A stretch of 64,000 nucleotides of DNA from Candidatus Parcubacteria bacterium (GCA_023128895.1 JAGMDC010000003.1:70514-134513); one strand, 5' to 3'. Counted from the first letter of the stretch, positions 35,961-54,593 are shown. The notes: a model not told the origin generated them from the sequence alone. A program made the numbers and translations.

Positions 35961-35998
35961 TTTTTATCACCCCTAATTAGTGCTAAATATAGCATAAA

Positions 35999-37407: not shown

Positions 37408-37417
37408 AATGATAAAT

Positions 37418-37589
37418 GAGCAAGGCAACAAGTCCTCAATGGCAAACATCGGAGGCGCCTGAGCATGGTCCGAGCCCCTACACCTAAATTAGGTGTGGGG
37501 GCTCGGTCAGGCGCTGAGATATTAGACCCCAAAACCCACCTTAGGGGTTTGAGGGTCGGTGCCTTGAGGGCTTCGTTGCCTTGCGAATT
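37418..37589. repeat. ~170-nt structured intergenic element, copy 2 (between secY and adk)
   Basis: Same architecture as 26416-26586 with compensatory substitutions in stems. Confidence 0.85.
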
Positions 37590-37599
37590 TAATTAAACG

Positions 37600-38877
37600 T
37601 TAAAATGTTTCGTAGTCCCTCATTTGCAATTGCGCGTTAATCTGCTTCATTGTTTCCAGCACAACTGACACAATAATCAAGAGAGCTGTTCCTCCCAACA
37701 AGAACTGAAACACCATCACGCCGGTAATTCCGCCTATAATAGACGGCATTATCGCGATAGTTCCCAAAAATAAAGCCCCAAAAAGCAAAATCCTGTTCAG
37801 AATATAATACAAAAAATTAGCAGTTGACTCTCCCGGCCTTATTCCAGGCACAAAGCCCCCCATTTTCTGCAAATTTGTTGCTATCGCCTTAGGGTCAAAA
37901 GTTACAGCAGTGTAAAAATAAGTGAACAGCACAACTAAAATAAAATACAAAGTCGCGTAGACCCAGGGATTTTGAAATAAATCCCCTACTGTTTGCGCGA
38001 CACTTCCAACTATGCCGCCCGCGCCTGCCAAAAAACTGGCGATCATTCCCGGGAAAAGCATTAGAGACAAAGCGAAAATAATAGGGATTACGCCTGCCGG
38101 ATTAATATTTAATGGCAAATAAGTTGAGACCCCGCCATACATTTTCTGCCCCCGCACTCTTTTTGCGTAAGAAACAGGGATATTCCGGCGCGCTTCGTTC
38201 ACAACAACCACGCCGGCAATTATAAGAATAGCCATTATGAAAAAAGCAATGTATGTAGGAATTGCGGAAGGATCCCAAGTGATAAACATCTGGCGAATAT
38301 TATTTGGAAAATCAGCAATAATTCCAGCGAAAATCAAAAGCGAAACTCCATTGCCAATTCCTTTTTCGGTAATCAGTTCTCCCAGCCACATTAAAAACAC
38401 GGCTCCAGCGACCACAGTTAAAATTGAACTGGCCATTAAAGCGGGTGAAAGAGAGCCGATAAGCCCCTGTCTTTGAAATAAAGTTAACATAGCAAATCCC
38501 TGCAATGTAGCCAAAGGCACAGTGAGCACTCTTCCATATTGATTAAATTTTTGCCTGCCTGCTTCCCCTTCCTCTTTATACATTTTTTCAAACGCGGGAA
38601 AAATCATGGTCAAAAGTTGTAAAATAATCACTGCTGTAATATACGGCCCCAATCCAAGCATCACAATGGAAAGATTGTCCAACGCCCCGCCGGTAAACAT
38701 ATTCATAAGCCCGAACATCTGATTTCTCTCAAAAAACTCTCTTAAATTTTCTATATCAATTCCGGGGATAGGAATATTCGCGCACAGCCGAAAAACAAAA
38801 AAAATAAATAAAACAAACAACATTTTATTGCGCAAATCGTGAATTTTCAATATTTGTATAAGTTTATCTAAAATCAT
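37600..38877 (-). CDS. secY: preprotein translocase SecY
   Basis: 10-TM SecY pattern. Confidence 0.95.
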   Translation of the reverse strand: MILDKLIQILKIHDLRNKMLFVLFIFFVFRLCANIPIPGIDIENLREFFERNQMFGLMNMFTGGALDNLSIVMLGLGPYITAVIILQLLTMIFPAFEKMYKEEGEAGRQKFNQYGRVLTVPLATLQGFAMLTLFQRQGLIGSLSPALMASSILTVVAGAVFLMWLGELITEKGIGNGVSLLIFAGIIADFPNNIRQMFITWDPSAIPTYIAFFIMAILIIAGVVVVNEARRNIPVSYAKRVRGQKMYGGVSTYLPLNINPAGVIPIIFALSLMLFPGMIASFLAGAGGIVGSVAQTVGDLFQNPWVYATLYFILVVLFTYFYTAVTFDPKAIATNLQKMGGFVPGIRPGESTANFLYYILNRILLFGALFLGTIAIMPSIIGGITGVMVFQFLLGGTALLIIVSVVLETMKQINAQLQMRDYETF

Positions 38878-39311
38878 TTTAATTCTTTGATTTTTCCGCC
38901 AATTTTTTCTATCTTTTCTTTCGCTGTTTTAGATATTTTGCAATCTTCAATAATCAATGCTTTGGTTATCTGCCCCTTTCCTAAAATTTTAACTCGCGGA
39001 ATTCTTTTTTCTATTTTACGAATTATTCCTTTTTTAAGCAAGGCTGCTGGATTTACTTTTTCTTTATCCTGGAAATATTTTTCAAAAAAAGCAAAATTTA
39101 TTTCCAAAAAATTCTTTGGTTTGGGATTAAATTTATAACCCCTTAATTTTGGGTATCTCTTAAGCAACCCGCGGACCATTGGTTCTTTATTGCTGCCAGA
39201 TCTTGATTTCTGTCCTTTTAATCCGCGTCCAGCATAAGTGCCGCGCTTCCCTCCGCGGGCAACGCGCTTTCTTGTTTTTGTTTTATGATTTGGTTTAAGT
39301 TCATTCAACAT
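38874..39311 (-). CDS. rplO: 50S ribosomal protein L15
   Basis: uL15 sequence pattern; follows rpsE directly (no rpmD). Confidence 0.9.
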   Translation of the reverse strand: MLNELKPNHKTKTRKRVARGGKRGTYAGRGLKGQKSRSGSNKEPMVRGLLKRYPKLRGYKFNPKPKNFLEINFAFFEKYFQDKEKVNPAALLKKGIIRKIEKRIPRVKILGKGQITKALIIEDCKISKTAKEKIEKIGGKIKELK

Positions 39312-39317
39312 AAATTA

Positions 39318-39851
39318 TTACTTTTTAGTTTTTTTATCAACATCGCTACGCTCGCCTGCATCGCTATGCGAAGCATTGCGGGCAGGTGTGTTTCCTAACA
39401 TCTCTAACGCTGCAATAGTTGCTTTTGCGTTGTTTAATTTATTTCTGGTCTTCCCGAGTACCTTTGAAGATATATTTTTAATTCCAGCCAAAGAACAAAT
39501 TACCCTGACTGTGCCGCCTGCGACTAATCCTCTGCCTTCTTTTTGCGGCTTAAGCAGGACTTTTGCGGCTCCAAATTTGGAAATCACTTCATAAGGAATA
39601 GTGCCTTGTGAAATAGGAACTTTGATTAAATTCTTTTTTGCCAACCTGGTTGCTTTTTCTATGCCCTGCGCTACATCAGAACCCTTGGCCACTCCAACTC
39701 CAACTCTCCCTTTTTTATCGCCAACAACCATTACAGCGCGAAACCGAAGACGGCGGCCGCCAGCAGTCACCCGTGTTACTCTTGCCAAATCCAAAAGTTT
39801 AGAATCGAACTCGTCTTTTGGCTTATTTTTACGAAATCTTTGATTAAACAT
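39318..39851 (-). CDS. rpsE: 30S ribosomal protein S5
   Basis: uS5 pattern; start set at MFNQRF (the track extends to 39890). Confidence 0.9.
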   Translation of the reverse strand: MFNQRFRKNKPKDEFDSKLLDLARVTRVTAGGRRLRFRAVMVVGDKKGRVGVGVAKGSDVAQGIEKATRLAKKNLIKVPISQGTIPYEVISKFGAAKVLLKPQKEGRGLVAGGTVRVICSLAGIKNISSKVLGKTRNKLNNAKATIAALEMLGNTPARNASHSDAGERSDVDKKTKK

Positions 39852-39877
39852 AATAAAATAATAAATGATTTTTACTC

Positions 39878-39905
39878 TTGACAAAACCAATCAATGTGCT
39901 ATAAC
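39878..39905 (+). promoter_or_regulatory. sigma70-like promoter TTGACA-16-TATAAC
   Basis: Seen in sequence 20 nt upstream of the SD AAGGAGGT. Confidence 0.6.
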
Positions 39906-39924
39906 CTTATCAAGGAGGTTAAAA

Positions 39925-40164
39925 ATGGAAATAGGAACTACTTTTATTTTTGTGATAGCGCTATGTATAATAAGTTTGTGCCATTTGATTTTTTCTTTCG
40001 GCATAAATTTTACCATGGGAAATATGGTTAAAATCGCTGAATCTAATGGTACCAAACTTGAATCTGCTATCAAAAAAATAAAATATGTTAACAGATTAAG
40101 CAATACGATAGCACTCTGTGTCGCCATGTTAGCGCTGGGGATACTAATAGCACAATCCATTTAA
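39925..40164 (+). CDS. small (79 aa) two-TM membrane protein encoded antisense within the rplR-rpsE gap
   Basis: Strong SD AAGGAGGT 5 nt before the ATG; two hydrophobic helices; weak terminator after the stop. Confidence 0.55.
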   Translation: MEIGTTFIFVIALCIISLCHLIFSFGINFTMGNMVKIAESNGTKLESAIKKIKYVNRLSNTIALCVAMLALGILIAQSI

Positions 40165-40211
40165 ATGTTTGCAGGCGGACAAATTCACCTGTATTTTTTT
40201 TATTCAATTTT

Positions 40212-40613
40212 TTAAAATTTCAATCCTGCTTCGCGGGCTCCCTCTGCCAGGGCTTTCACTCTTCCGTGATATTTATATCCGCCTCTGTCAAAAACAATTT
40301 TTTTAATTTTCTTTTCCAGCGCTCTCTCGGCAACCAACTTCCCTACTGCGTATGCCAGCGCTGTTTTGCCTGCCTGCTCGGTAGGCAGGCCTGCCTGCTC
40401 GGTAGGCAGGGCCTTGCGGTCTCCAGCGTCTGGTTTTTTAATTTCTTTTTCCTGCGCCTCAACAATTGTATTCCCTTTTTCGTCATCAATAAGCTGCGCG
40501 TAAATATGCTGATGCGACCGAAAAACGCAAAGACGCGGAATTTTAATAGTTCCAGACACTTTTGCTCTCACCCGTTTATGCCGCCTAATTTTCTTTTCTT
40601 GTTTCTTTAACAT
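40212..40613 (-). CDS. rplR: 50S ribosomal protein L18 carrying an in-frame 14-aa insertion (LPTEQAG x2)
   Basis: uL18 C-terminal pattern; insertion encoded by the tandem palindromic 21-mers. Confidence 0.9.
40369..40410. repeat. tandem duplication of the palindromic 21-mer CCTGCCTGCTCGGTAGGCAGG inside the rplR coding sequence
   Basis: Seen in sequence; the same 21-mer occurs between genes at 41795 and, as a variant, at 50128. Confidence 0.85.
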
Positions 40614-40636
40614 ATTTTAACTTAAAAATAAATAAT

Positions 40637-40803
40637 GAGCGAGGCAACAAGCCCTCAATGGCAAACATCGGAAGCGCCTGAGCATGGTCTCCGAGCCACG
40701 CCTACTGGCGGGGCGAGGAGTCAGGCACTGAGATATTAGACCCCAAAATTCCGCTGGGAATTTTGAGGGTCGGTGCCTTGAGGGCTTCGTTGCCTTGCGA
40801 ATT
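40637..40803. repeat. ~170-nt structured intergenic element, copy 3 (between rplF and rplR)
   Basis: Outer helix and hairpin A conserved; hairpin B replaced by a different GC-rich hairpin. Confidence 0.85.
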
Positions 40804-40821
40804 GTTATAAACTACAAAACC

Positions 40822-41364
40822 TTACTCTGCTGTCGCGGCTTTTTTGCCCACTTTCTTTCTTACAATTTCTCCTTCATATCTGATTCCTTTGCCTTTATAC
40901 GGCTCTGGAGGCCGAATTTTTCTTATTTTCGCGGCTGTCTGCCCAACTTTTTCCTTATCAATGCCGGAAACAGTGATTATATTTTTCTCTACTGAAAATT
41001 TCACTCCTGGGACAGATGAAAACTCTACTGAATGGCTAAATCCCACCTGTAAAATTAAATCTTCACCTTGCAAATTTGCCTTATATCCCAATCCCTGCAC
41101 CTCTAATTTCTTTTCATAACCATGAACTACTCCTTCCACCATATTAGAAACCAAACTCCTGGTTAATCCCCAAAAAGCATTAGATTTTTTTGTCTCTGCT
41201 TGCAATAAAACAATAATCTCTCCTTGTTTTTGCTCCAACTTAATTTCAGGCCGAATCTCTCGCGAGAGTTCTCCTTTTGGTCCTTTGACCACAATTTTCT
41301 GACCATCAATTTTCACTTCAACGCCTTCTAATATTTTAATTGGTTTTTTACCTATCCTTGACAT
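40822..41364 (-). CDS. rplF: 50S ribosomal protein L6
   Basis: uL6 pattern. Confidence 0.9.
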   Translation of the reverse strand: MSRIGKKPIKILEGVEVKIDGQKIVVKGPKGELSREIRPEIKLEQKQGEIIVLLQAETKKSNAFWGLTRSLVSNMVEGVVHGYEKKLEVQGLGYKANLQGEDLILQVGFSHSVEFSSVPGVKFSVEKNIITVSGIDKEKVGQTAAKIRKIRPPEPYKGKGIRYEGEIVRKKVGKKAATAE

Positions 41365-41383
41365 AAATAATAATTTTCAATTT

Positions 41384-41770
41384 TTACCATACTTCGCATA
41401 TTATTTCGCCGCCTAAATTCTGCTTGCGCGCGTCTTCGTCTGTCATTAAACCCTTTGAAGTGGAAATAACAGACATACCAAATCCGCCTTTAACTTTTTT
41501 AAGTTTATCTTTAACGCTATAAATTCTCTGGCCTTGTTTGGAAACTCTTTTAAGCCCCTGTATAGCCGGCCGTTTATCCTGATATTTCAACGCAATCTCT
41601 ATTACAGCACGAGTTTTTCTTCCCTTTTTCTCTACCTTGCCTAAAAATCCCTGTTTTTCTAAAATTTTAGCAATCTCATACTTAAAATTAGAAAATGGAA
41701 TATTCACTGATGGATGTTCCACCATTTGCGCGTTCCTTATTCTATTGAGCATATCAACAATTGTATCCAT
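41384..41770 (-). CDS. rpsH: 30S ribosomal protein S8
   Basis: uS8 pattern. Confidence 0.9.
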   Translation of the reverse strand: MDTIVDMLNRIRNAQMVEHPSVNIPFSNFKYEIAKILEKQGFLGKVEKKGRKTRAVIEIALKYQDKRPAIQGLKRVSKQGQRIYSVKDKLKKVKGGFGMSVISTSKGLMTDEDARKQNLGGEIICEVW

Positions 41771-41794
41771 AATAAATTTAAAACTTAAAATTTG

Positions 41795-41815
41795 CCTGCC
41801 TGCTCGGTAGGCAGG
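41795..41815. repeat. hairpin element CCTGCC-TGCTCGGTA-GGCAGG upstream of the rpsH start
   Basis: Identical 21-mer to the rplR insertion. Confidence 0.8.
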
Positions 41816-41824
41816 AAACTTGAT

Positions 41825-42010
41825 TTACCAAGAAGATTTTTTTACTCCGGGAATTTCGCCTTTATTCGCCATTTCCCTAAAACATATACGGCATAAACCA
41901 AACTTTCTCATATATCCCCTATTTCTGCCGCACTTAAAACAACGCAGCACTTTACGAGTGGAAAACTTTGGTTTCTTTTTTGATTTTGCTATTTGTGATT
42001 GTTTAGCCAT
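41825..42010 (-). CDS. rpsN: 30S ribosomal protein S14 (Zn-ribbon type Z)
   Basis: CxxC...CxxC, 61 aa. Confidence 0.9.
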
Positions 42011-42013
42011 AAA

Positions 42014-42571
42014 TTATTTTTTTATGGGAAATCCTAATAATTTAAATAACTCTAATCCTTGTTCTTTATTTTTAGCTGTGGTCGCAATCACGGTCTCAAA
42101 TCCAAACATAACTTTTGATTTTTCAGGAGATATTTCTGGAAAAGAAATATGTTCTTTCACAGCAATAGTTAAATTACCAGTAGCGTCAACAGATTTTGCG
42201 TCAATTCCTCTAAAATCTCTTGACCGAGGAAGCGCTATATGAATCAACCTGTCTAAAAAATCATACATCTTTTTTCTCCTTAGCGCAACCATTGCGCCGA
42301 TAATCATACCCTCGCGAATTTTGAAACCAGCGATTGATTTTTTTGCCTTGGTCAAAACAGGCGCCTGCCCGCAAATCAAAGACAAATCATGCGCGATTGA
42401 CTCTTGAATTTTCTTTTTCTCGTCAGATGTCTTATCTGAAACCAATCTGCCAAAACCAGTATTAACAACCACTTTATCAATTTTAGGCACTGCCATATCA
42501 TTCTTATAACCGAATTTTTTCTTCATTGCGCCTACAACTTCCTTTTGATATTTTTCTTTTAAATTTATCAT
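42014..42571 (-). CDS. rplE: 50S ribosomal protein L5
   Basis: uL5 pattern. Confidence 0.9.
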   Translation of the reverse strand: MINLKEKYQKEVVGAMKKKFGYKNDMAVPKIDKVVVNTGFGRLVSDKTSDEKKKIQESIAHDLSLICGQAPVLTKAKKSIAGFKIREGMIIGAMVALRRKKMYDFLDRLIHIALPRSRDFRGIDAKSVDATGNLTIAVKEHISFPEISPEKSKVMFGFETVIATTAKNKEQGLELFKLLGFPIKK

Positions 42572-42879
42572 ATTTCTTCACCGCACTTTTTACAAATTCT
42601 ATTTTTTATTTTCTTTTCTTTGTCAACTTTATATCCTATTCTCACTGCTTTACCGCATTTAGGACATATTATTTTTACATTGGAAATACTCAAAGGCCCG
42701 GGCATTTCAACAATCTGCCCTTTTTCTCCGCTTTTTTTCGGCCTCACGCTCTTTTTTCTAATATTGATTCCTTCCACCAAAACTTTCCCTTTTTTTGGAA
42801 GCGCTTGCAAGACCTTGCCTTTCCTGCCGCGGTCTTTGCCGGAAATTATTAAAACTGTGTCATTTTTGCGTATTTTCAT
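42568..42879 (-). CDS. rplX: 50S ribosomal protein L24 with a C-terminal zinc-ribbon extension
   Basis: KOW motif; CPKCG...CKKCG. Confidence 0.9.
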   Translation of the reverse strand: MKIRKNDTVLIISGKDRGRKGKVLQALPKKGKVLVEGINIRKKSVRPKKSGEKGQIVEMPGPLSISNVKIICPKCGKAVRIGYKVDKEKKIKNRICKKCGEEI

Positions 42880-43247
42880 ACTATATCTTTTGCCATTCCC
42901 GCAATTTTTTCATAACCCATTTCTTTTATTTCGCGGGCTATGGGACCTAAAATTCTCCCGCCTTTGGGATTTTTAGTAGTGCCCTCTAAAATTACAGCGG
43001 CATTATCGTCAAATCTAATATAAGAGCCGTCTTTTCTCCTAAATTCTTTTTTTTGCCTTACAATCACCGCCCTCACTTTATCATGCTTTTTCACAATTTT
43101 TCTTGGTTCCGCTTTTTTCACAGCAGCAACAATAACATCTCCTATTCGCGCGTATCTCCTGCGGCTCCCGCCCAATACCTTAAAACACTGAACTATTTTT
43201 GCTCCAGTATTATCTGCTATTTTTAACATTGTTTGCGGCTGAATCAT
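42876..43247 (-). CDS. rplN: 50S ribosomal protein L14
   Basis: uL14 pattern. Confidence 0.9.
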   Translation of the reverse strand: MIQPQTMLKIADNTGAKIVQCFKVLGGSRRRYARIGDVIVAAVKKAEPRKIVKKHDKVRAVIVRQKKEFRRKDGSYIRFDDNAAVILEGTTKNPKGGRILGPIAREIKEMGYEKIAGMAKDIV

Positions 43248-43474
43248 AATTTTTTAATTACTCGCCAACATTTATCTTTTGATATTGGTCTGGTTTCCTC
43301 AATTACTACTTTATCTCCAACTTTATATTCTCCCTCTTCATAATGCGCTTTATATTTTTTGTGAAGCTTAAAACGCCTCTTATATTTAGGGTCTTTTTTA
43401 ATTCTTTCAACCTTAACAACCAATGTGTTCTTCATTTTGTCTGAAACAATTATTCCTGTTAATTGATGTTTCAT
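43244..43474 (-). CDS. rpsQ: 30S ribosomal protein S17
   Basis: uS17 pattern. Confidence 0.9.
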   Translation of the reverse strand: MKHQLTGIIVSDKMKNTLVVKVERIKKDPKYKRRFKLHKKYKAHYEEGEYKVGDKVVIEETRPISKDKCWRVIKKL

Positions 43475-43653
43475 AATTTAGTTAGTATAGTTAGTATTCG
43501 CGCGATGTCTCTTCTTTTTGAACGAATTTCCCGCACATTTTTCACCTTACCAGAAGCCAAATCAAAACGCAACTGGCGAAGTTTTTCTCTATCCTGTTCT
43601 AAAAGTCCTTTTAATTCTTTTTCTGATTTTTGTCTTAATTCGTTTGGTTTCAT
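43471..43653 (-). CDS. rpmC: 50S ribosomal protein L29
   Basis: uL29 pattern. Confidence 0.85.
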   Translation of the reverse strand: MKPNELRQKSEKELKGLLEQDREKLRQLRFDLASGKVKNVREIRSKRRDIARILTILTKL

Positions 43654-43664
43654 CGTTATATAAA

Positions 43665-44069
43665 TTATCGCATTATGAACTTAGTTCTTATAGGCATTTT
43701 CTCTCCAGCGCGCTTTAACGACTCTTTTGCCGCCTCCTCTTCTATGCCGTCAATCTCAAACATAATTCTACCCGGCTTTATTGGAAAACAATAATATTCC
43801 ACTCCGCCCTTTCCTCCTCCCATAGGCGTTTCATTTCCTTTTTGCGTCACTGGCTTGTATGGAAAAATTCTTATCCAAAGCTTTCCTCTTTTTTTCAAAT
43901 ATCTAATAATCGCCCTGCGCGCGGCTTCAATCTGTCTAGAATTTATCCATTTTGCTTCCAGTGCTTTTAATCCAAAACTGCCAAAAGCCAATTCTGTTCC
44001 TCTTGTCTCTATCCCTTTTGAACTGCCCTTATGCCATTTGCGATGTTTAACTTTTTTAGGAATTAACAT
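43665..44069 (-). CDS. rplP: 50S ribosomal protein L16
   Basis: uL16 pattern. Confidence 0.9.
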   Translation of the reverse strand: MLIPKKVKHRKWHKGSSKGIETRGTELAFGSFGLKALEAKWINSRQIEAARRAIIRYLKKRGKLWIRIFPYKPVTQKGNETPMGGGKGGVEYYCFPIKPGRIMFEIDGIEEEAAKESLKRAGEKMPIRTKFIMR

Positions 44070-44085
44070 ATACTGTGATTGCTAA

Positions 44086-44811
44086 TTAATCAAATTTTTC
44101 ACCTTTATATATCCATACTTTTATTCCAACAACCCCATAATTGCAATGAGCACTGGCTGTGCCATAATCAATTTCCGCTCTTAGTGTTTGCCTTGGTAAA
44201 GACCCGATTTTCAGCCATTCCTTGCGCGCAATTTCTTTCCCGTCCAACCTGCCGGCGACCTGAATCCGCGCGCCTTTTATTCCCTTTGAATTCATTATTT
44301 TGTCCAATCCCTGTTTAAGCGCCCTTCTGTATGGAAAACGTTTTTCCAATTGAGATGCCACCAATTGAGCCACCAAACTTGATTTTGTCCACGGCTCTCT
44401 AATTTCCTTAATGTCAATTTTTACTTTCTTGGTTTGTTTGGTGTCGCTTACGCTGATTTCTTTTTTTGCTTTTTCCTTGTTTTTTATTTTCTTGAGAGAA
44501 AGTGTCTCTTTCCTCCTGGAAATTTTAGAAATTTTTTGTTCTATTTTTTCTCTTAATTCTTCCACGCCCTTGCCGCCTCTCCCAATAATCAAACCAGGCC
44601 TTGAAGTATTTATAATAATATTTATTTTGTCAGGGGACTTTTCTATCTCAACGCTTTGCAGACCGCAGTCCTTTAACTGTTTTTCCAGAAAACTCCGTAT
44701 CACAAAATCCTCCTCTAAAAATTCTGCGAGATTTTTCTTTGTCTGCCACCTTGAATCCCAATCATTGGCATCTCTTAAACGATATGCTTTTGGGTGAACT
44801 CTATGAGACAT
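44086..44811 (-). CDS. rpsC: 30S ribosomal protein S3
   Basis: KH domain, uS3 pattern. Confidence 0.9.
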   Translation of the reverse strand: MSHRVHPKAYRLRDANDWDSRWQTKKNLAEFLEEDFVIRSFLEKQLKDCGLQSVEIEKSPDKINIIINTSRPGLIIGRGGKGVEELREKIEQKISKISRRKETLSLKKIKNKEKAKKEISVSDTKQTKKVKIDIKEIREPWTKSSLVAQLVASQLEKRFPYRRALKQGLDKIMNSKGIKGARIQVAGRLDGKEIARKEWLKIGSLPRQTLRAEIDYGTASAHCNYGVVGIKVWIYKGEKFD

Positions 44812-44813
44812 AA

Positions 44814-45356
44814 TTAAAATGCTTTTCGCCTAAACACTCTTTTTAATCCTGTTGCGCGCTCCGGCCTTTGTTTTTCAAATTCCGGCTTTATTTTTCGCTT
44901 CTTCACCTTAACAGGTATTTTTCTCTCTCTTTCTGCTTCTATCTTTTCTTTTGTCGGCTCCTCAACACCTTTTTTGGGCAAAATTTTCTTTTTCTTTTTT
45001 ATTTCTTTTTTCTCAATTTCATCCAATACCAAGGTAATATGCGAAGTCCTTTTCCGAATCTCATTAGCCCTGCCCCGTGATACTGGACGCCATCGTTTAG
45101 GTTTGGGGCCCTCGTCAACTAACAATTTAGAGATATAAAGCTCGGCAATATTTTCTATTTGAAAATTATTTTTTGCGTTGGCAATTGCGGAGTTTAATAA
45201 TTTCAACATAGGAATACTCGCTTTTTTATCCGCAAAATTCAAAATCTTTTGAGCTTTCTCAACTGATTTTCCTTTTATCAAATCAGCAATTAATCTTACT
45301 TTCCTTGGTGTAATATGTAAATAACTTAATTTCGCTTTTATAATCATAATTCTCAT
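44814..45356 (-). CDS. rplV: 50S ribosomal protein L22 with a K/R-rich C-terminal extension
   Basis: uL22 pattern. Confidence 0.9.
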
Positions 45357-45649
45357 TTCTCTTGTTTCACTTTTGCTTCCTGCTCTCTCTGCATTTTGCC
45401 TCCATGCCTTACAAATTTTGTGGTAAAAGAGAACTCTCCCAACTTATGCCCCACCATATCTTCAGTGATATACACAGGAGCAAATTCTTTTCCATTATGG
45501 ACCCCAAAAGTAAAACCCACCATTTCAGGCGTGATAATACAAAAACGCGCCCATGTTTTAATAATGGTTTTATCTTCTTTTCTCAAATTGCTGATTTTCT
45601 TCATCAACTTCTCGTCTATATATGGTCCTTTCTTTAAACTTCTAGACAT
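45353..45649 (-). CDS. rpsS: 30S ribosomal protein S19
   Basis: uS19 pattern. Confidence 0.9.
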
Positions 45650-45673
45650 ATTCTATTTTTAAGTGAAGCGAGG

Positions 45674-45705
45674 GAAGTCCAAGTGAGCTTGCTCGCTTGG
45701 ACTTC
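45674..45705. repeat. 15-bp stem hairpin GAAGTCCAAGTGAGC-TTG-CTCGCTTGGACTTC between rpsS and rplB
   Basis: Seen in sequence. Confidence 0.7.
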
Positions 45706-45737
45706 AGAGCGAACGCAGAAAATTTATCCCGCAGGGT

Positions 45738-46574
45738 TCATTTTCTTTTCTTTATTTTCCTTCTTCTAATAATAAACTTGTTTGTTTGTTTGTTCTTTTT
45801 TCTAGTTCTTGCGCCTAAAGCCGGCTTTCCCCACGGTGTCTTTGGATGCGGCATTCCAGCCCCTGATCTTCCTTCTCCGCCGCCCATTGGATGGTCGCAA
45901 GGATTCATAGCGCTTCCTCTCACTGTAGGCCTTTTTCCCATATGCCTTTTTCTGCCTGCTTTGCCTAATTTAATAAACCGATGTTCTGGATTGGAAACTA
46001 TTCCTATCGAAGCAAATCCTTGCATAGGAACTTTCCTAATCTCAGAAGACGGCATTTCCAAATGAATATATTTTCCCTCTTGGCCTAAAACTTTGGCTGA
46101 AGTTCCCGCGCCTCTCACTATCTGTCCTCCCTGCCCGGGACTAAGTTCAATATTGTGAACCATTGTCCCTGCTGGAATATTTCTCAATTCCATTCTATTG
46201 CCTGGTTTTAATTCCGTTTTTTTCGAAAAAATAATCTCATCCCCGACTTTCATATTCTGCGCGGCTAAAATATATTTTCTCTCTTTGTCTTTATACTCCA
46301 AAAGCGCAATAAAGGCAAATCGATTAGGGTCGTATTCTACGGCAATCACTTTCGCAGGCACATCTATTTTACTCTGCCCAAATTCAATAATTCTGTAAAT
46401 ATGTTTAGCGCCCCCTCCTCTGTGCCTCACTGTAATTCTGCCTGATAAATTTCTTCCTGATTTTTTCTTCAATGATTTAATCAGCGCCCTTTCAGGCTTT
46501 TTTTTAGTCAATCCAGAAAAATCCGCGCCTCTCGTCCCTCTTGTCCCTGAAGTTGTTGGTTTATATATTTTCAT
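45738..46574 (-). CDS. rplB: 50S ribosomal protein L2
   Basis: uL2 pattern. Confidence 0.95.
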   Translation of the reverse strand: MKIYKPTTSGTRGTRGADFSGLTKKKPERALIKSLKKKSGRNLSGRITVRHRGGGAKHIYRIIEFGQSKIDVPAKVIAVEYDPNRFAFIALLEYKDKERKYILAAQNMKVGDEIIFSKKTELKPGNRMELRNIPAGTMVHNIELSPGQGGQIVRGAGTSAKVLGQEGKYIHLEMPSSEIRKVPMQGFASIGIVSNPEHRFIKLGKAGRKRHMGKRPTVRGSAMNPCDHPMGGGEGRSGAGMPHPKTPWGKPALGARTRKKNKQTNKFIIRRRKIKKRK

Positions 46575-46600
46575 AATTATGAGTGAGGGAGGAATACAAA

Positions 46601-46628
46601 AACTTGTTTTTGTATTCCAACCGAGCGA
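46601..46628. repeat. 12-13-bp stem hairpin GGAATACAAAAAC-TTG-TTTTTGTATTCC between rplB and rplW
   Basis: Seen in sequence. Confidence 0.7.
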
Positions 46629-46657
46629 GTAATTATGCGGCTTTGCCGCAATAAAAT

Positions 46658-47119
46658 TTATCGTGGAAGTAACTCTATCTTCTGTCCTTCCTTAACTTTT
46701 ACAATGGCTTTTCTATACCCCTGTTTCCAACCCATAGTTTTTCCAACCCGTCTTTTCCTTCTGGGAATATTAATCACATTAACCCTTACAACATCTACGC
46801 CGTAAACATCTTCCACTGCTTGTCTAATTTCCTGTTTGTTCGCTTTTTGCGCAACATTAAAAATATACTGATTTTTTTCAACCAAATCAGTTGCTTTTTC
46901 TGAAATATGAGGGATTTTCAATATTTTATAACTTATTCCTGTTTTTATTACTGATTTTCTTTTTTTAGCAACTATTTTCTTCTCTGCTGGCTTCTTTAGT
47001 TTCGCTGGCTTAACACCAACTCTTTCTTCTTTCTTTTCCTTTACTGCCTTTACTTCTTCTTTCTTTTCCTCTTTTATTTCCTCTTTTTTCTTTTTCCTTA
47101 AAAAATTAAATATACTCAT
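46658..47119 (-). CDS. rplW: 50S ribosomal protein L23 with a K/E-rich N-terminal extension
   Basis: uL23 pattern. Confidence 0.9.
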   Translation of the reverse strand: MSIFNFLRKKKKEEIKEEKKEEVKAVKEKKEERVGVKPAKLKKPAEKKIVAKKRKSVIKTGISYKILKIPHISEKATDLVEKNQYIFNVAQKANKQEIRQAVEDVYGVDVVRVNVINIPRRKRRVGKTMGWKQGYRKAIVKVKEGQKIELLPR

Positions 47120-47125
47120 AAAATT

Positions 47126-47782
47126 TCATTTAACAAATGTTTTTTCTATTACTTTTATTGATGGCCTTGCCATCATAATATATTTATATTTTAAAATATC
47201 CAAACAATTCAAGTCTTTTGCCTGCATTACCGCTGTATCAGGAATGTTTCTCGCTGCTCTGACTATATTCTCGTCTTTTTCCGGAATAACAATCAAAAAA
47301 CTTGCTTTTTCTTTATTTTGTTTTGCTATTAAATTCGCGATTTCTTTTGTTTTTGGCTTGTCTAGCTTGAACTCGTCTAAAATAATCAACAACCCATTCT
47401 TTGCTTTTTGGCTTAAAGCCATAATCAGGGCTTTCCTTCTCATTTTTAATGGAATAATTTTCTTAAAATTTCGCTTATTTGTAGGCCCAAAAGTTATACC
47501 GCCGCCGCGCCATATAGGAGACCTGTTTGACCCTACTCTTGCCCTGCCTGTCCCTTTCTGGCGCCAGGGCTTTCGTCCGCCGCCTCTCACCTCTCCCTTG
47601 TCTTTTGTATGGGCTGAAACCTGCCTTCTATTCGCCATTTGCGATACAACCACCTGATGCACCAAATCAGAATTAAAATCCTCGCCAAACACCTTGTCCG
47701 GCAAATCCATGTTCTTTGTTTCATCTTTCTCGATTTTCTTGGGTTTATCTTTTTTTTGATTGTCTAATTGTGTTTCTGCCAT
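47126..47782 (-). CDS. rplD: 50S ribosomal protein L4
   Basis: uL4 pattern. Confidence 0.9.
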   Translation of the reverse strand: MAETQLDNQKKDKPKKIEKDETKNMDLPDKVFGEDFNSDLVHQVVVSQMANRRQVSAHTKDKGEVRGGGRKPWRQKGTGRARVGSNRSPIWRGGGITFGPTNKRNFKKIIPLKMRRKALIMALSQKAKNGLLIILDEFKLDKPKTKEIANLIAKQNKEKASFLIVIPEKDENIVRAARNIPDTAVMQAKDLNCLDILKYKYIMMARPSIKVIEKTFVK

Positions 47783-47798
47783 TGTTTTTTTTAATTTT

Positions 47799-48395
47799 TC
47801 ATCCTCTGATTTCCAGTAATGTGCCGCGCCTGCCGGGAACCGCGCCTTTTACAGCGATTAAATTATTCTCTTTGTCTATTTTAACTATTTTCAAATTCTT
47901 TACAGTTGTTCTGTCAGCGCCCATTCTGCCAGGCATTTTTCTTCCCTTGATAACTCTTTGCGGCCAAGCACTCCCCACTGACCCTATTGTTCTTTCTTCG
48001 TGTTTAGCTCCATGCGTCGCTTTCCTGCCGTGGAACCCATGCCTTTTTACGCCCCCTTGAAACCCCTTTCCTTTGGAAATTCCTGAAATTTTTACTTTGT
48101 CCATTAGGTCAAAAACTGAAACATCAATTGCATCGCCTTGTTTAATATCTTTAATATCCTGTTCAACAATTCTATATTCTCTAATGTATTTATATTCTTT
48201 GCCTTTTTCTGTTTTCTTTATATTTTTTGTTTTCTTATCAAAACCGATTTGTATTGCTTCGTATTCATCCGTGTCCTTTGTCTTGAGCTGCAATACCTTG
48301 CAGGGACCTGCTTCAATCAAAGTAACTGGAATTACATTCCCTTGTTCGTCAAAGAGCTGGCTCATTTCTAATTTTTTACCTAAAATAAATTTCAT
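47799..48395 (-). CDS. rplC: 50S ribosomal protein L3
   Basis: uL3 pattern. Confidence 0.9.
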   Translation of the reverse strand: MKFILGKKLEMSQLFDEQGNVIPVTLIEAGPCKVLQLKTKDTDEYEAIQIGFDKKTKNIKKTEKGKEYKYIREYRIVEQDIKDIKQGDAIDVSVFDLMDKVKISGISKGKGFQGGVKRHGFHGRKATHGAKHEERTIGSVGSAWPQRVIKGRKMPGRMGADRTTVKNLKIVKIDKENNLIAVKGAVPGRRGTLLEIRG

Positions 48396-48410
48396 CTTTT
48401 TTTTCTAATC

Positions 48411-48436
48411 AAAAACTGAGCGCTAGCCCAGTTTTT
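48411..48436. repeat. hairpin AAAAACTG-N10-CAGTTTTT between rplC and rpsJ
   Basis: Seen in sequence. Confidence 0.6.
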
Positions 48437-48526
48437 AATATACAGACTAGTTTAATTTTTCATTTATCAATTTTGGAATATGTGCCTAAAACAATTGTCA
48501 TATTCTTAAAATTTATTCAAAAACAT

Positions 48527-48859
48527 TCACATTTTAATTTCAATATCCACGCCAGCAGGCAAAGTCAAATTTGTCAAAGCGTCAATAATCCTTGAATTTG
48601 GATTTAAGATGTCAATCAGCCGCTTGTGGGTTCTCATTTCAAACTGTTCTCTGCTGTCTTTATGGATAAAAGTAGACCTATTCACAGTATATTTGTGAAT
48701 TTCTGTTGGCAAAGGAATAGGCCCTAAAACCTCGGCTCCATAACGCAAAGCAGTCTCCACGATTTGTCGACTGCTTGTGTCAATTACTTTATGGTCGTAA
48801 GCCCGAAGTTTTATCCGTAATTTTGGCTTAACTTCTTCTGCTAATTTTTTTGTTGCCAT
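48527..48859 (-). CDS. rpsJ: 30S ribosomal protein S10
   Basis: uS10 pattern. Confidence 0.9.
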
Positions 48860-48903
48860 CTTAAAGAACTTTTGTCTAAATTATGAATTATGAATTCTTA
48901 ATT

Positions 48904-50103
48904 CTATTTTATGATTTTTGTTACTACCCCTGCTCCCACTGTTTTGCCGCCTTCTCTGATAGCAAATCTCTGCTGTTCTTCCATAGCAATAGGAACAATT
49001 AATTTGATTTTCAGAGTGGCCGTATCTCCTGGCATAACCATTTCTGTTCCTTCCGGCAAGACCACATCTCCCGTAACATCAGTTGTTCTGAAATAAAACT
49101 GCGGCTTGTATCCGCTGAAAAACGGAGAATGCCTTCCTCCTTCTTCTTTACTCAATACGTAAACCTCTCCATCAAATTCAGTATGAGGCGTAATGGTTCC
49201 CGGTTTTGACAAAACTTGGCCTCTTTCAACATCTTCTTTTTTAAGTCCGCGCAATAAAACCCCGACATTATCCCCTGCTCGCGCTTCGTCCAATGTTTTA
49301 TTAAACATCTCCATGCTCACCGCAACTGTTTTTTGGGTTGGTTTGATTCCAACAACCTCTATTTCGTCGTTTGAATGAATAACGCCTCTTTCAACTCTGC
49401 CCGTTGGCACAGTCCCCCTGCCAGCAATAGAAAACACATCCTCAACAGCCATTAAAAACGGCTTGTCAATGTCTCTTTCCGGTTCTGGAATAAATTCGTC
49501 CACCTTGTCCATCAACTCCAAAATTGGCTTTATATTTTCATCGTCAACAGATTTGCCTTCCAAAGCTTTTAACGCGGAACCTCTTATAATAGGAACTTTA
49601 TCTCCGGGATATTCATATTTGGTTAAAAGTTCGCGAATTTCCGATTCCACTAAATCAATAATTTCTGGGTCGTCCACTGCGTCGCATTTATTCAAAAATA
49701 CCACTAATGAAGGCAGGCCAACCTGGCGAGCCAAAAGAATATGCTCTCTTGTCTGCGGCATAGCGCCGTCAGGAGCGGAAACAACTAAAATCGCTCCGTC
49801 CATCTGCGCCGCGCCAGTCACCATATTTTTAATATAATCAGCGTGCCCTGGGCAATCAATATGCGCGTAATGGCGTTTTTCCGTTTCATATTCAACATGG
49901 CAGACATTAATAGTAACGCCGCGCTCTTTTTCCTCCGGTGCTGAATCAATCTCGCTCACGCCTTTTTCGCTCGCTTTCAGGCCTTTTAATTTAAGCGCGT
50001 GTAAAATCGCGGCTGTTAAAGTGGTTTTGCCGTGATCCACATGGCCAATAGTGCCGATATTCAAATGAGGTTTTACTCTCTCAAATTTTTCTTTCTCTGC
50101 CAT
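48904..50103 (-). CDS. tuf: elongation factor Tu
   Basis: [18 protein letters not shown]; start set at MAEKEKF (the track extends to 50175). Confidence 0.95.
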
Positions 50104-50127
50104 GAAAAACTTAAAACTTGAAACATA

Positions 50128-50147
50128 CCTGCCTGCCGATAGGCAGG
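50128..50147. repeat. hairpin CCTGCC-GATA-GGCAGG flanked by direct repeats GTTTCAAGTTT, immediately upstream of the tuf start
   Basis: Variant of the 21-mer element at 41795 and in rplR. Confidence 0.75.
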
Positions 50148-50261
50148 AAACTTGAAACTTAATTAAAGGTTTCAAATTTTATATCTCAAATTCATAAAAT
50201 TATATTATGTTATATTATGTTAATATATCAAAATTAAAAAAAAAGTCAACAGTTATTCATC

Positions 50262-50561
50262 TTACACAGGTAAATTCTCAATATCTGCTTCTTCATCTTC
50301 TTCCTGGATAGGTATTTCTAAAAAATTCTTGCCTTCCTGGCTCAAACCTTCCTGCTCGCGCTCGCGTTCCTTGTCCTGCTCCTGCTTCTTATCCTGCTCA
50401 ATTATTAAATCCGCTTTGTCAAAAGGGTTGTTCTTATATCCTTCCACTATCTTTTTATAATCACCGAAACTCATCACAGTTAAAACAGGCCTGCCGTCCT
50501 CAACAATTATAAACTTGCCGCCGTCTTTTTCTATTAAATTTTTAATCTCATCTAAATTCAT
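50262..50561 (-). CDS. hypothetical small acidic protein (Phd/YefM-antitoxin-like N-terminus, weak)
   Basis: ORF between tuf and fusA. Confidence 0.4.
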   Translation of the reverse strand: MNLDEIKNLIEKDGGKFIIVEDGRPVLTVMSFGDYKKIVEGYKNNPFDKADLIIEQDKKQEQDKEREREQEGLSQEGKNFLEIPIQEEDEEADIENLPV

Positions 50562-50728
50562 ATAATTTACTTATAGCAAACTTTCCAAAAAAAATCAAAT
50601 TATTAAATAAAAATTTTTACTGTCGAACAACAGCATCAAATAATTTCAAACCCATAGACCAGTCCGTAGGTCTATCTTTAAAACTAACAATTGGAATTCA
50701 AAAATTATTTCTCGCTCTCATCTTCATC

Positions 50729-50953
50729 CTAGTTTTCGCTCACTTTTTCTAATTTCTCGCGGGTTTCCTCTAATTCTTTTTGCTTTTTATTCTCTTCCGC
50801 TTCCTGAACAAGTTTCATCCTGGTGGTTTTTTCTAATTTCTCTTTATCCGGTTTCAAGCCCCCTTTTTCTTCTTTAGTTCCTCCCGTATCTTTTTCCACT
50901 AATCTTCTTCGAACTCCTTTAAAATAACTTTTCTCTAAAAAACCTCTTGGCAT
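50729..50953 (-). CDS. hypothetical small K/E-rich protein
   Basis: ORF. Confidence 0.4.
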   Translation of the reverse strand: MPRGFLEKSYFKGVRRRLVEKDTGGTKEEKGGLKPDKEKLEKTTRMKLVQEAEENKKQKELEETREKLEKVSEN

Positions 50954-51090
50954 AATTTTTATAATTTTTTATTTATATTTTGAACCCGACCTTTTTCAAT
51001 CGATTTTTTGAATTCCTTATTTTTGTAATTCTGATATTCTCCATATTTAACATATTCTATCACAAATAGAATTTTATGGAAAACTAAAAT

Positions 51091-51113
51091 GTCCCGAGAA
51101 ATATTCTCGGGAC
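51091..51113 (-). terminator. terminator hairpin GTCCCGAGAA-ATAT-TCTCGGGAC downstream of fusA
   Basis: Seen in sequence. Confidence 0.65.
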
Positions 51114-51116
51114 ATT

Positions 51117-51170
51117 TTCTTATTCTATATTCTATATTCTATATTCTATATTCTATATTCTATATTCTAT
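51117..51170. repeat. heptamer tandem repeat (TATTCTA)x7 overlapping the fusA stop codon
   Basis: Seen in sequence. Confidence 0.85.
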
Positions 51171-53272
51171 ATTCTCTTGCCTTCAATGATTTCTTGTGTG
51201 ATGTTTGCAGGTATCTCTTCATAATCGTCAAATTCCATTGTGAAATTGCCTCTGCCCTGCGTCAGAGAACGTAAAGCAGTAGCATACCCAAACATTTCAG
51301 ATAAAGGAATTTTCGCGCTTATAACTTTCGTATTCAACCTATCTTCTGTTTCTTCAATCTTGCCGCGTCTGCTGGACAAATCGCCGATAACATCGCCGAA
51401 AAATTCTTCTGGAATAACTACTTCTAATTTCATAATTGGTTCTAATAGATACGCTTGCGCGCGCTTAGCCGCGCTCTGCAAAGCCATTGACCCGGCAATT
51501 TTAAACGCGATTTCAGAAGAATCAACCTCGTGGAAAGACCCGTCATATAGGGCGCAGGACAAATCAATCAATGGATAACCAGCCACAACGCCTTTTGACA
51601 TTGCTTCTTTAATTCCTTTTTCTACCGCCGAAATAAATTCTTTTGGAATAACTCCTCCTTTTATCTCGTCAATAAATTCAAAGCCCTCTCCTCTTTCTTT
51701 TGGCTCAACTCTGACCCAAACATGGCCGTATTGTCCCCTGCCGCCTGACTGCTTAATGTATTTCGCTTCTGCTTGAGCTTCTGTCTTAATTGTTTCTTTA
51801 TACGCAACCTGGGGCCTGCCAACATTTGCTTCAACATTAAATTCTCTTTTCATTCTATCCACAAGAATATCCAAATGAAGTTCGCCCATTCCGGAAATAA
51901 TTGTTTCGCCGGTGTCCGGGTCTCCTTTAATTTTGAAAGTCGGGTCTTCGTCTGACAATTTTTTAAGCGCCAAGCCCATTTTCTCCTGGTCTGCTTTTGT
52001 CTTTGGTTCAATGCGGATGGAAATTACCGGCTCTGGGAAAGTAATCTCTTCTAAAATCACAGGAGCGTTTTCCGCGCACAAACTATTTCCAGTTCCAGTA
52101 TTTTTAAGACCCACTGTTGCCGCGATGTCGCCGGCAAATAATTCATCAACCTCCTCCCTTTCCGCGGCATGCATTCTCAAAATTCTTCCCAAACGCTCTT
52201 TTTCGCCAGTATTGGCGTTTACGATATAAGAACCCTTTATTATAGAACCGGAATAAACTCTGAAATATGTCAAGGTTCCCACATAAGGGTCTGCGGCGAT
52301 TTTGAAAGCCAAAGCGCAGAACGGTTCGTCATCGCTTGCTTTCTTTTCAACCTCCTTGTTTGTCTTGGGGTCTATGCCTTTAATTGGAGGCAGGTCAACA
52401 GGCGAAGGCAGGTAATCAACAGCAGCGTCCAATACCAGCTGAACTCCGGTATTTTTCAGCGCTGAACCGCAAAATACTGGAATCAGTTTATAGTCAATAG
52501 TTGCTTTTCTTAAAACTTGTTTGATTTTCTCAACAGGAATTTCTTTGCCGGCAAGATATTGCTCCAACATTTCCGCATCTTCCGCAGCAACTTTTTCAAT
52601 AAGTTTTTCGCGCCATTTTTTCGCGTCGTCTAATAAATCCGCAGGAACCTCTTCTTCCTTCACTTCCTCGCCTAACTTGCCCCCAAATCTCATTGCCTTC
52701 ATAGACAGCAAATCAATCACGCCTTTAAGATTTTCTTCCAAACCAATGGGAATCTGCATTGCTACAGCATTAGGGGAAAGTTTTTGCCCAATTGAAGCAA
52801 AACTCTTTTCAAAAGACGCGCCCATTCTGTCTAATTTATTTATAAAACAAATTCTTGGAACATTAAATTTATCTGCCTGTCGCCACACTGTTTCTGACTG
52901 CGGCTCCACTCCGGCAACTCCGTCAAAAACAACCACAGCGCCGTCCAGTACCCGCAGAGACCTTTGGACCTCCACTGTAAAGTCAATATGTCCGGGAGTG
53001 TCAATAATATTTATCCTGTGTTCATTGGTCTTGTCTTTTGTGGTATATTCTCTTGGAGACCAAAAACAAGTTGTTGCCGCGGAAGTAATGGTTATACCTC
53101 TTTCCCGCTCCTGTTCCATCCAGTCCATAACTGCCTCGCCCTCGTGGACTTCGCCGATTTTATGGGAAATTCCCGTGTAAAACAAAACACGCTCGGTAAA
53201 TGTTGTCTTGCCGGCGTCAATATGAGCTATTATACCTATGTTACGATATTTTTCTATTGAATATTTGCGCAT
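51167..53272 (-). CDS. fusA: elongation factor G
   Basis: [14 protein letters not shown] and EF-G domain IV/V patterns. Confidence 0.95.
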
Positions 53273-53361
53273 AAAATAATTACTACCACAAAGTCAGCAA
53301 AAAATAAATCAGAATTAATACTAAAATAAAAGTAAAAATGAAATCTATTGGACCAGCCATA

Positions 53362-53417
53362 AGAATAGAATTTAGAATATAGAATTTAGAAGAATTATTC
53401 CAGATTCTATATTCTAT
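53362..53417. repeat. heptamer repeats (TAGAATT/TAGAATA) with an inverted copy ATTCTATATTCT; overlaps the rpsG stop
   Basis: Same TTCTAWA family as 51117 and 11944. Confidence 0.8.
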
Positions 53418-53881
53418 CTGGCGAAATGGGCGAAGGCGCGGTTTGCGTCTGCCATACGATGTGTGTCGTTTTTCTTTTTCACCGCGGATCCCTCATTACT
53501 AGACGCGGCAATCAATTCTTCCGCTAATTTTTCTTTCATTGGCTTGCCCTTTTTTGCCTTAGACGCGTTTATCAGCCACCTCATAGCCAAACTAATTTTC
53601 CTCTCCCCTCTCACTTCTCTTGGAACTTGGTAAACAGCTCCTCCAATTCTTTTTGACTTTACTTCCATATCTGGCGCGGCATTCGCCATTGCCAAATCAA
53701 AAATCTCTAATGGATCTTTCTTTGTTTTTTCTTTAATAATGTCAAAAGCGCTATAAACGATTTTTACAGCAATAGTTTTCTTGCCTTTGCGCATTATCTG
53801 GTTGATAAATTTGGCAACCATTACATTGTCATACACAATATCCCCTGGAATTATTCTTTTTGAAATTTTTTTGCGAGCCAT
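53414..53881 (-). CDS. rpsG: 30S ribosomal protein S7
   Basis: uS7 pattern. Confidence 0.9.
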
Positions 53882-53889
53882 AATAAATA

Positions 53890-54591: not shown

Positions 54592-54593
54592 TA

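Follow-up and report, generated by a model that had tools for sequence, protein, structure and literature searches.

A Probable Selfish Insertion Element of 20–21 Nucleotides in the Ribosomal Protein Cluster of a Candidatus Parcubacteria Bacterium

A stretch of 64,000 nucleotides from a Candidatus Parcubacteria bacterium (GCA_023128895.1, JAGMDC010000003.1:70514-134513), hereafter called the window at its full length, contains four copies of a short GC-rich hairpin: two in tandem inside rplR, the gene of ribosomal protein L18, one in the spacer between rpsN and rpsH, and one in the 5′ leader of tuf. The evidence gathered here favours, with a probability of about 0.7, the view that this hairpin is a mobile and selfish near-palindromic insertion element of 20–21 nt and not a leader signal, which in its behaviour would rank among the smallest mobile DNA elements known. 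Copies have been added precisely at sites that are empty in close relatives, with a target duplication of 0–1 nt at most and a C-flanked junction. They also show a preference for, or a preferential survival at, hairpin tips, heptamer arrays and other copies of the element itself. Moreover, the 20-nt form is excluded from coding sequence, while essential proteins, in this case L18, retain the 21-nt form in frame in their surface loops.

Hairpin Copies in the Ribosomal Protein Cluster

The str/S10/spc ribosomal protein cluster occupies the 38–54 kb part of the window, on the minus strand, in DNA with an overall G+C content of 37.7%, and the EF-Tu protein encoded there is identical to one labelled Candidatus Parcubacteria bacterium. 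A first-pass annotation had described the hairpin as a repeat family of highly expressed leaders where no Shine-Dalgarno (SD) motif is visible, with a tandem insertion in rplR. The copies it pointed to are real, as the 21-mer CCTGCCTGCTCGGTAGGCAGG (plus strand) occurs at 40369–40389, 40390–40410 and 41795–41815, three exact matches against 0.01 expected in shuffles. A 20-nt relative, CCTGCCTGCCGATAGGCAGG (plus strand), lies at 50128–50147, and no further copies of the 21-mer were found in the window at up to 3 mismatches. The surrounding genes are all on the minus strand, and in the mRNA sense the 21-mer reads CCTGCCTACCGAGCAGGCAGG, which folds into a 7-bp stem with a 7-nt loop (−10.6 kcal/mol as RNA, −6.1 as DNA). 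The tuf copy, previously given as CCTGCC-GATA-GGCAGG, is found at that site but is better read as the 20-nt form CCTGCCTATCGGCAGGCAGG (mRNA sense), which differs from the 21-mer by one deleted and one substituted base.

The rpsH and tuf copies do lie upstream of the start codons, but they do not adjoin or abut them as had been stated: the 3′ end of each is exactly 24 nt before the ATG (rpsH ATG, 41770; tuf ATG, 50103). Both copies are surrounded by AAGTTTY heptamer repeats, which within the window are confined to these two leaders; matches to AAGTTTYAAGTTT number five in the window, all in the tuf and rpsH leaders, against 1.15 expected. The GTTTCAAGTTT direct repeats reported on either side of the tuf copy are likewise real. 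The features concerned are the following, L-numbers being our labels for compared sequences and family 1 the family of this hairpin.

40390–40410, minus strand: family-1 21-mer, copy 1 (the more 5′ of the two in the mRNA), read LPTEQAG in frame with rplR (L18); absent from L024, L025 and L029
40369–40389, minus strand: family-1 21-mer, copy 2, tandem to copy 1 and in frame in rplR
40212–40613, minus strand: rplR (L18) open reading frame (ORF), 133 aa; close relatives 119 aa
41795–41815, minus strand: family-1 21-mer in the rpsN-rpsH spacer; present in L024, L025 and L028, empty site in L027
41771–41822, minus strand: AAGTTTT/AAATTTT heptamers flanking the 21-mer in the rpsN-rpsH spacer
50128–50147, minus strand: family-1 20-nt copy CCTGCCTATCGGCAGGCAGG in the tuf 5′ leader; the L158 leader lacks exactly 20 nt; identical variant in L057 and L074
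50104–50160, minus strand: AAGTTTY heptamer array of the tuf leader, which holds the 20-mer; array present without the hairpin in L158
50222–50249, minus strand: best promoter-like site upstream of tuf, TTGACT-16-TATATT with a TG extension (consensus match only)

If the promoter-like site at 50222–50249 were used, the tuf hairpin would fall in the 5′ untranslated region.

Empty and Filled Sites in Close Relatives

Contig Ga0451374_82457 (L024/L029) is 99.4% identical to the window across 18,956 aligned bases. Its L18 gene keeps the empty site gac cgc aag gcc|aaa aca, where the window has exactly 42 additional nucleotides, placed between gc(c) and (c)aaa, with a one-base C ambiguity at the junction and no target duplication. 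The tandem pair is in frame and lengthens the protein by 14 aa, in accordance with the first-pass annotation; alignment with close orthologues of 119 aa, which are devoid of these 14 residues, confirmed the insertion and placed it in a loop of variable length among Parcubacteria L18 proteins. A strain this close lacking exactly 42 nt bears out the earlier claim of a genuine repeat family that colonised a coding sequence, and LPTEQAG does not behave as a motif conserved in related L18 proteins without the intergenic copies. Moreover, an identical 133-aa L18 was found on 9 contigs from several samples and assemblers, and the insert is therefore not an artefact of one assembly.

Empty counterparts of the two leader copies are found in a sister genome, GCA_029935855.1, whose EF-Tu is 95% identical. 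Its tuf leader (L158), ...aagtttcaaattt|tatattccaagttttaagtttctATG, is identical to that of the window minus exactly the 20-mer, and its rpsN-rpsH spacer (L027) reads taaataaagttttaagttttaagattattATG, to which the window adds 28 nt made of caagttt plus the 21-mer. A 7-nt target duplication (caagttt/caaattt) at rpsH was considered and dropped, since the tuf site is a precise insertion into a pre-existing heptamer array. The rpsH copy is common to the closer strains L024, L025 and L028, and an adjoining A-for-C substitution in L024 indicates vertical inheritance. Judging from these sequence comparisons, all four window copies are recent insertions, those of 42 nt and 20 nt being precise, with a junction ambiguity of at most 1 nt.

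Heptamer tandem repeats directly upstream of the starts of highly expressed genes are an observation in their own right. They are of the AAGTTTY type at tuf (50104–50160) and rpsH (41771–41822) in the window. In two other relatives whose EF-Tu is 95% identical (L156:9950-10000 and L157:9950-10000), tuf is preceded by another leader, in which (TTGTTCA)x4 stands upstream of the ATG.

Distribution Beyond the Lineage

The 21-mer is by no means restricted to these sites, as matches were found far beyond the window, and a span across many phyla and phages had gone unnoticed in the first-pass annotation. The family consensus, CCTGCCTRCC-GGYAGGCAGG, is near-palindromic; the window 21-mer corresponds to the consensus 20-mer with one extra A in the loop, and the tuf copy to the 20-mer with one substitution. 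A scan of GTDB species genomes, which covered the rarer 21-mer only, returned the exact sequence in 23 stretches, against ~0.3 chance matches calculated for 596 Gb. The hosts are metagenome-assembled genomes (MAGs) of the candidate phyla radiation (CPR), Bacteroidota, Nitrospirota and Elusimicrobia, with labels, as given in the MAG records, of Saccharibacteria, Doudna-, Andersen- and Niyogibacteria, Sphingobacteriales, Chitinophagaceae, Saprospiraceae, Elusimicrobia and Thermodesulfovibrionia. The sole match in isolates, one Raoultella gene in two species, is in coding and GC-rich DNA and is taken to be due to chance.

Scanning metagenomes for CCTGCCTAYC-N2-4-CAGGCAGG revealed at least 120 loci. 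Among the matches listed, the dominant form is the 20-mer CCTGCCTACCGGCAGGCAGG (78/122), a 20-nt palindrome with one mismatch, followed by the 21-mer CCTGCCTACCGGACAGGCAGG (22/122). IMG/VR holds 48 stretches with CCTGCCTRCCGGYAGGCAGG, mostly as a perfect palindrome in GC-rich phages, and 15 with CCTGCCTACCGGACAGGCAGG; the exact window 21-mer had no match in that database. One IMG/VR contig with at least 6 copies is a bona fide phage, among whose ORFs terminase and adaptor protein families were recognised. In PLSDB plasmids and GenBank phages the matches stayed at chance level, in GC-rich replicons and with E values of ~0.04 or higher.

Coding Copies and Selection

An open frame of at least 80 codons on either side surrounds 13 of the 42 copies of the 21-nt form and none of the 73 copies of the 20-nt form; with a threshold of at least 50 codons, the former count rises to 19/42. 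Nearly all coding 21-nt copies read LPTEQAG or LPTGQAG, which corresponds to the sense orientation and the second frame, and the orientation of coding copies is biased (20 vs 6). Since intergenic copies are unbiased with respect to neighbouring genes (20 sense, 26 antisense), the bias in coding sequence suggests selection acting on the peptide, and not strand-specific insertion. Selection of this kind also shows that the copies are real genomic DNA.

Besides L18, the coding hosts presumably include LeuRS, UvrC, ThiE, a GH67 enzyme, a Gfo/Idh/MocA oxidoreductase and phage ORFs, names that we read from the translations. Copies in ValRS and PcrA/UvrD were aligned to solved structures. For ValRS, the homologue 1gax has a gap of exactly 7 aa at the element (RFVLLSR-------EGF), and in the PcrA alignment with 1pjr/2pjr the gap around it is split into parts of 6 and 3 residues.

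Sequence Context of the Copies

Statistics on the behaviour of the family come from 146 instances among the listed matches, relatives of the window being excluded, with totals of 143 copies or 140 distinct copies in the individual tests. C follows the element in 108 of 140 distinct copies and precedes it in 67 of 140. Flanks that pair with each other around the element over at least 6 bp were found in 36/143 copies (2.4% of controls), and over at least 8 bp in 17/143 (0.4% of controls), an excess which indicates that larger palindromes often carry the element at their tip. Such palindromes include terminator-like hairpins and the widespread modules gattgcttcg...ctcgcaatgac and ccctcaccc...gggagaggg. 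Direct repeats of at least 7 nt span the element in 24/143 copies (3.8% of controls), often as heptamer arrays such as CTCGTCA, CATTTAC, CCTTAAC or ACTGAAA. Moreover, complete copies occur inside other copies at no more than one base from the centre (L058, L059, L064, L091, L106 and others), with nested copies also in L063, L096, L121 and L147.

Two copies touch tRNA-like sequences. In a phage (L190:2239-2330) the 20-mer palindrome forms the extra-long variable arm of a predicted tRNA-Met, and at L201:495-560 the palindrome interrupts a tRNA-like D-loop, where ARAGORN calls no tRNA. Across metagenomes no preference for any gene position emerged, and intergenic copies of the family have no preferred orientation and use convergent and divergent spacers alike (12 vs 13).

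A Second Family of Structured Units

When the window is compared with L029, the 99.4%-identical strain, the indels of at least 6 nt are for the most part GC-rich structured units that have been inserted or that differ in copy number. The window has extra sequence in L18 (42 nt), in the L6/L18 spacer, which is filled by a structured element of 204 nt, and between L18 and S5 (336 nt). L029 for its part has a 79-nt hairpin-rich insert, one 36-nt unit in L23 and, at the C-terminus of S5, three 36-nt units more than the window. The units of 36–39 nt make up a second family, with consensus CCTGCCCGCAAYGCTTCGCRTAGCGATGCAGGCGGGC (fold of −21.4 kcal/mol) and ends of the CCYGCC...GCAGGC type like those of family 1. 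It has four copies in the window and is also polymorphic in L23, L22 (a 36-nt unit in L025), S5, L18 and holB.

39350–39386, minus strand: family-2 unit CCTGCCCGCAATGCTTCGCATAGCGATGCAGGCGAGC, in frame in the C-terminus of rpsE (S5); 1 unit in the window, 2 in L026, 4 in L029
18552–18591, minus strand: family-2 variant in a DNA polymerase III delta′ (holB-like) ORF at 17766–18734, where the span of the Pfam domain exceeds the profile by ~12 aa
54464–54500, plus strand: family-2 unit, intergenic, in the first copy of a 1.43-kb tandem duplication
55902–55938, plus strand: family-2 unit, intergenic, in the second copy of the duplication

The tandem 36-nt units of S5 read roughly PARNASHSDAGG and represent a copy-number polymorphism in an essential ribosomal protein. 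All coding units of both families, of 21, 36 and 39 nt, have lengths that are multiples of three. In L026, an 85%-identical relative (L18 at 339-737), a 39-nt family-2 unit lies at exactly the codon position of L18 that holds the 21-mers in the window, which suggests an insertion hot spot or a uniquely tolerant site.

The window also holds, at 40619–40822, 26405–26589 and 37407–37592, three copies of a longer structured repeat (~190–204 nt) closed by a long terminal stem, GCAAGGCAACGAAGCCCTCAAGG...CCATTGAGGGCTTGTTGCCTCGC. The copy between L6 and L18 is absent from L029 and is therefore a recent insertion; a search of Rfam with the 204-nt element gave no match even at E≤1. The 336-nt insert between L18 and S5 (39877–40212), also absent from L029, is not visibly GC-rich or palindromic, and carries an ORF of 99 aa on the opposite strand (39865–40164) with no Pfam match.

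Other features of the window were recorded as well. The ~1.43-kb tandem duplication at 54418–57208, 74–99% identical by segment, contains two 287-aa ORFs without a Pfam match, each followed by a family-2 unit. Several copies of a direct repeat family of 57–122 nt occur between small ORFs at 34571–36036. A group I intron match (RF00028, 78 bits) was obtained at 11039–11248 on the minus strand, between ORFs 10289–11011 and 11377–11940 and near tRNA genes at 9969–10276. An ORF with a HEPN AbiU2 domain, of the abortive-infection type, is located at 7359–8006 on the minus strand and adjoins unannotated ORFs.

Mobilisation and Alternative Explanations

The element would be copied in trans by an enzyme not encoded beside it. 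The likeliest route may be through single-stranded hairpin DNA, in the manner of the HUH/Y1 transposases (IS200/IS605) or of repetitive extragenic palindromes (REPs) and their RAYT transposases, an RNA intermediate being the alternative; either would suit a hairpin substrate and single-stranded targets. The two L18 units would then have arisen by slippage or by a second insertion, the tandem units of S5 could be explained by slippage after a first insertion, and the phages that carry the family could take the element from one phylum to another. The absence of target duplications argues against a DDE transposase. Sequence or junction evidence ruled out a sortase LPXTG signal, rRNA or tRNA mimicry, CRISPR repeats, sequencing adapters, a DDE-transposon footprint and the GTAG tag of REPs.

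Several observations weigh against an insertion element. No transposase, HUH or reverse transcriptase domain was detected with Pfam in 20 ORFs of the window or in 10 ORFs of the copy-rich phage, and no copies were found flanking a candidate gene: in L093, where two copies lie 1.9 kb from each other, the genes that they flank are ABC permease genes. Copy pairs in L019 flank what we take to be a methyltransferase-like gene, as read from the sequence, and an ELP3-like gene. The preference for hairpin tips could stem from selection and not from a preference of insertion. Copy numbers of the exact 21-mer look low, at 1–3 per GTDB genome, and apart from the Raoultella gene all matches come from metagenome assemblies. 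Finally, the two leader copies share their orientation and their 24-nt distance to the ATG, which could reflect a function as well as a common target array.

One alternative dispenses with dedicated mobility and attributes the copies to template switching at hairpins, slippage and gene conversion, the likeness across phyla being that of a sequence favoured by such processes. Tandem numbers do vary (2 units in L18; 1, 2 or 4 in S5), junctions have a microhomology of 0–2 nt, and copies sit at slippage-prone hairpin tips and repeat arrays, all of which speak for this account. New sites, however, have no homology to the flanks of a donor, and complete copies are nested inside copies. Convergence, in addition, cannot explain why at least four phyla plus phages have a 20-nt sequence with the same loop, given the 23 matches of the 21-mer found where ~0.3 would be expected by chance. 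We hold this account to be improbable.

A second alternative, slightly less probable still, is that the hairpin is a functional RNA element of highly expressed leaders (mRNA stabiliser, processing site, attenuator or start-site organiser in an organism without SD motifs), with the L18 copies as a by-product. It would accommodate well the two intergenic copies, both sense-oriented and ending at the same distance from the ATG, the stability of the hairpin (−10.6 to −11.2 kcal/mol) and the flanks of the tuf leader, which lengthen its stem. A simple terminator scan also flagged the tuf copy, with a weak tail TATGTTTCAA, and left the rpsH and L18 copies unflagged; terminator-like matches in the region, however, were not in excess (11 vs 8.4 in shuffles), and T-runs follow some copies elsewhere (L013, L017). 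The tie to missing SD motifs proposed by the first-pass annotation did not hold, because none of the 28 window genes checked (e.g. 37600–54300) has an SD-like motif upstream. Its absence at rpsH and tuf is thus a genome-wide property, start regions are A/T-rich, and translation initiation in this organism appears to be SD-independent.

A leader regulatory RNA would be expected to keep a conserved position or to belong to a curated family. The hairpin is absent from the homologous leaders L158 and L027 of the sister genome, the latter spacer being also one heptamer shorter, and the tuf leader of other relatives at 95% EF-Tu identity is of an unlike kind. Rfam at gathering thresholds over the whole window gave no match at the hairpins, and elsewhere the family is found in any context and in either orientation. 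The homologous leaders function in the sister genome with no hairpin present, which leaves a conserved regulatory role unsupported. The rpsH and tuf hairpins are probably near-neutral passengers, which may have a lineage-specific side effect.

The last alternative, a sequencing or assembly artefact such as an adapter-like oligonucleotide in contigs, could draw on a nearly invariant sequence in unrelated organisms and on matches from metagenome-derived assemblies only (Raoultella aside), but it is effectively refuted by strains that inherited the rpsN-rpsH copy with adjoining point substitutions, by the L18 insert on 9 contigs from independent samples and assemblers, by mutations in the copies, by reading-frame selection (0/73 vs 13/42) and by native genes that resume exactly at the flanks.

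A wider form of the insertion-element reading can be put forward more tentatively, at somewhat less than even odds. One near-invariant 20-nt near-palindrome (CCTGCCTRCCGGYAGGCAGG) would be an active, horizontally spreading nano-transposon of several phyla and phages, the smallest and most widely spread mobile DNA known; its 21-nt derivative, read LPT(E/G)QAG, would be adapted to coding genes, and the 36–39-nt units would share its termini and machinery.

Relation to Known Small Repeats and Significance

None of the papers found contains the DNA strings of the window, LPTEQAG or LPTGQAG, and keyword searches returned background literature on REPs, Rickettsia palindromic elements (RPEs) and the small dispersed repeats (SDRs) of cyanobacteria; no published description of the element was found. 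In behaviour, the closest system is that of the SDRs. Those described by Elhai et al. in 2008 are reportedly 21–27 nt long, some of them hairpins, and are said to lie in tandem heptamer repeats, to be self-nested and to insert precisely into conserved sequence. To our knowledge no protein encoded by an SDR has been described, and an RNA-mediated route is said to have been proposed by the same authors. The likeness to the present element comprises the size of 20–21 nt with a hairpin, the heptamer arrays, the self-nesting and the precise insertion. The SDR1-8 paper of Elhai et al. on Nostocaceae is cited in PMC3116915, PMC5861425 and PMC2884548, and SDRs were reported to be confined to this one cyanobacterial subgroup (PMC5861425). 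In contrast, the hosts here are CPR, Bacteroidota, Nitrospirota, Elusimicrobia and phages, and a near-invariant family has a 21-nt subfamily in frame in essential protein genes. The element is set apart by host range and presumably by sequence, and is best described as a new cross-phylum variant of the very-small-mobile-repeat kind, which works like an SDR without being filed as one.

REP/REPIN sequences are RAYT-associated, lineage-specific and mostly extragenic GC-rich palindromes of 20–40 bp with a GTAG/CGTC tag, which prefer co-directional and convergent spacers (PMC3116915, PMC3733652). They resemble the element in being dispersed GC-rich hairpins with occasional copies in ORFs and no target duplication. 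However, the ends here are CCTGCC and GGCAGG(C), and GTAG is only internal, at the loop-stem junction of the plus strand. Two of the four window copies and 13 of the 42 copies of the 21-nt form are in coding sequence, the distribution is cross-phylum, and no preference for co-directional and convergent spacers was observed. No RAYT (Y1 HUH) was found among 20 ORFs of the 64-kb window.

RPEs, in turn, are selfish palindromes of ~100–150 bp found in frame in protein genes of one genus, with a CGTC tag (Ogata et al. 2000, via PMC3733652). In-frame palindromic insertion into functional genes of a small AT-rich genome is common to both systems, but the units here are of 21 nt (family 1) or 36–39 nt (family 2), RPEs being five times longer. 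The GC clusters of yeast mitochondria are strain-polymorphic palindromes of 30–50 bp, with an optional in-frame one in var1, which spread by gene conversion in crosses. They too are GC-rich palindromes of an AT-rich genome in which a ribosomal protein gene tolerates an in-frame copy, but they are organellar and unrelated in sequence. Bacterial miniature inverted-repeat transposable elements, of 70–300+ bp, have terminal inverted repeats and target-site duplications of fixed length; the present element shares with them the non-autonomous nature and the inverted termini, and differs in its 20–21 nt and the lack of duplication.

Descriptions of very small mobile repeats have until now presented them as peculiar to a single cyanobacterial group, and behaviour of the same kind is seen here across phyla and in phages. 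Pairs of empty and filled sites between 99.4%-identical strains offer a tractable system for the study of how a 20-nt sequence is copied and passes from one phylum to another. Such inserts give rise to strain-level indels, to spurious "low-complexity" motifs (LPTEQAG, PARNASHSDAGG) and to apparent leader hairpins, all of which can be mistaken for function. In the minimal genomes of CPR bacteria, selfish DNA lengthens even essential ribosomal proteins (L18, S5, L22 and L23).

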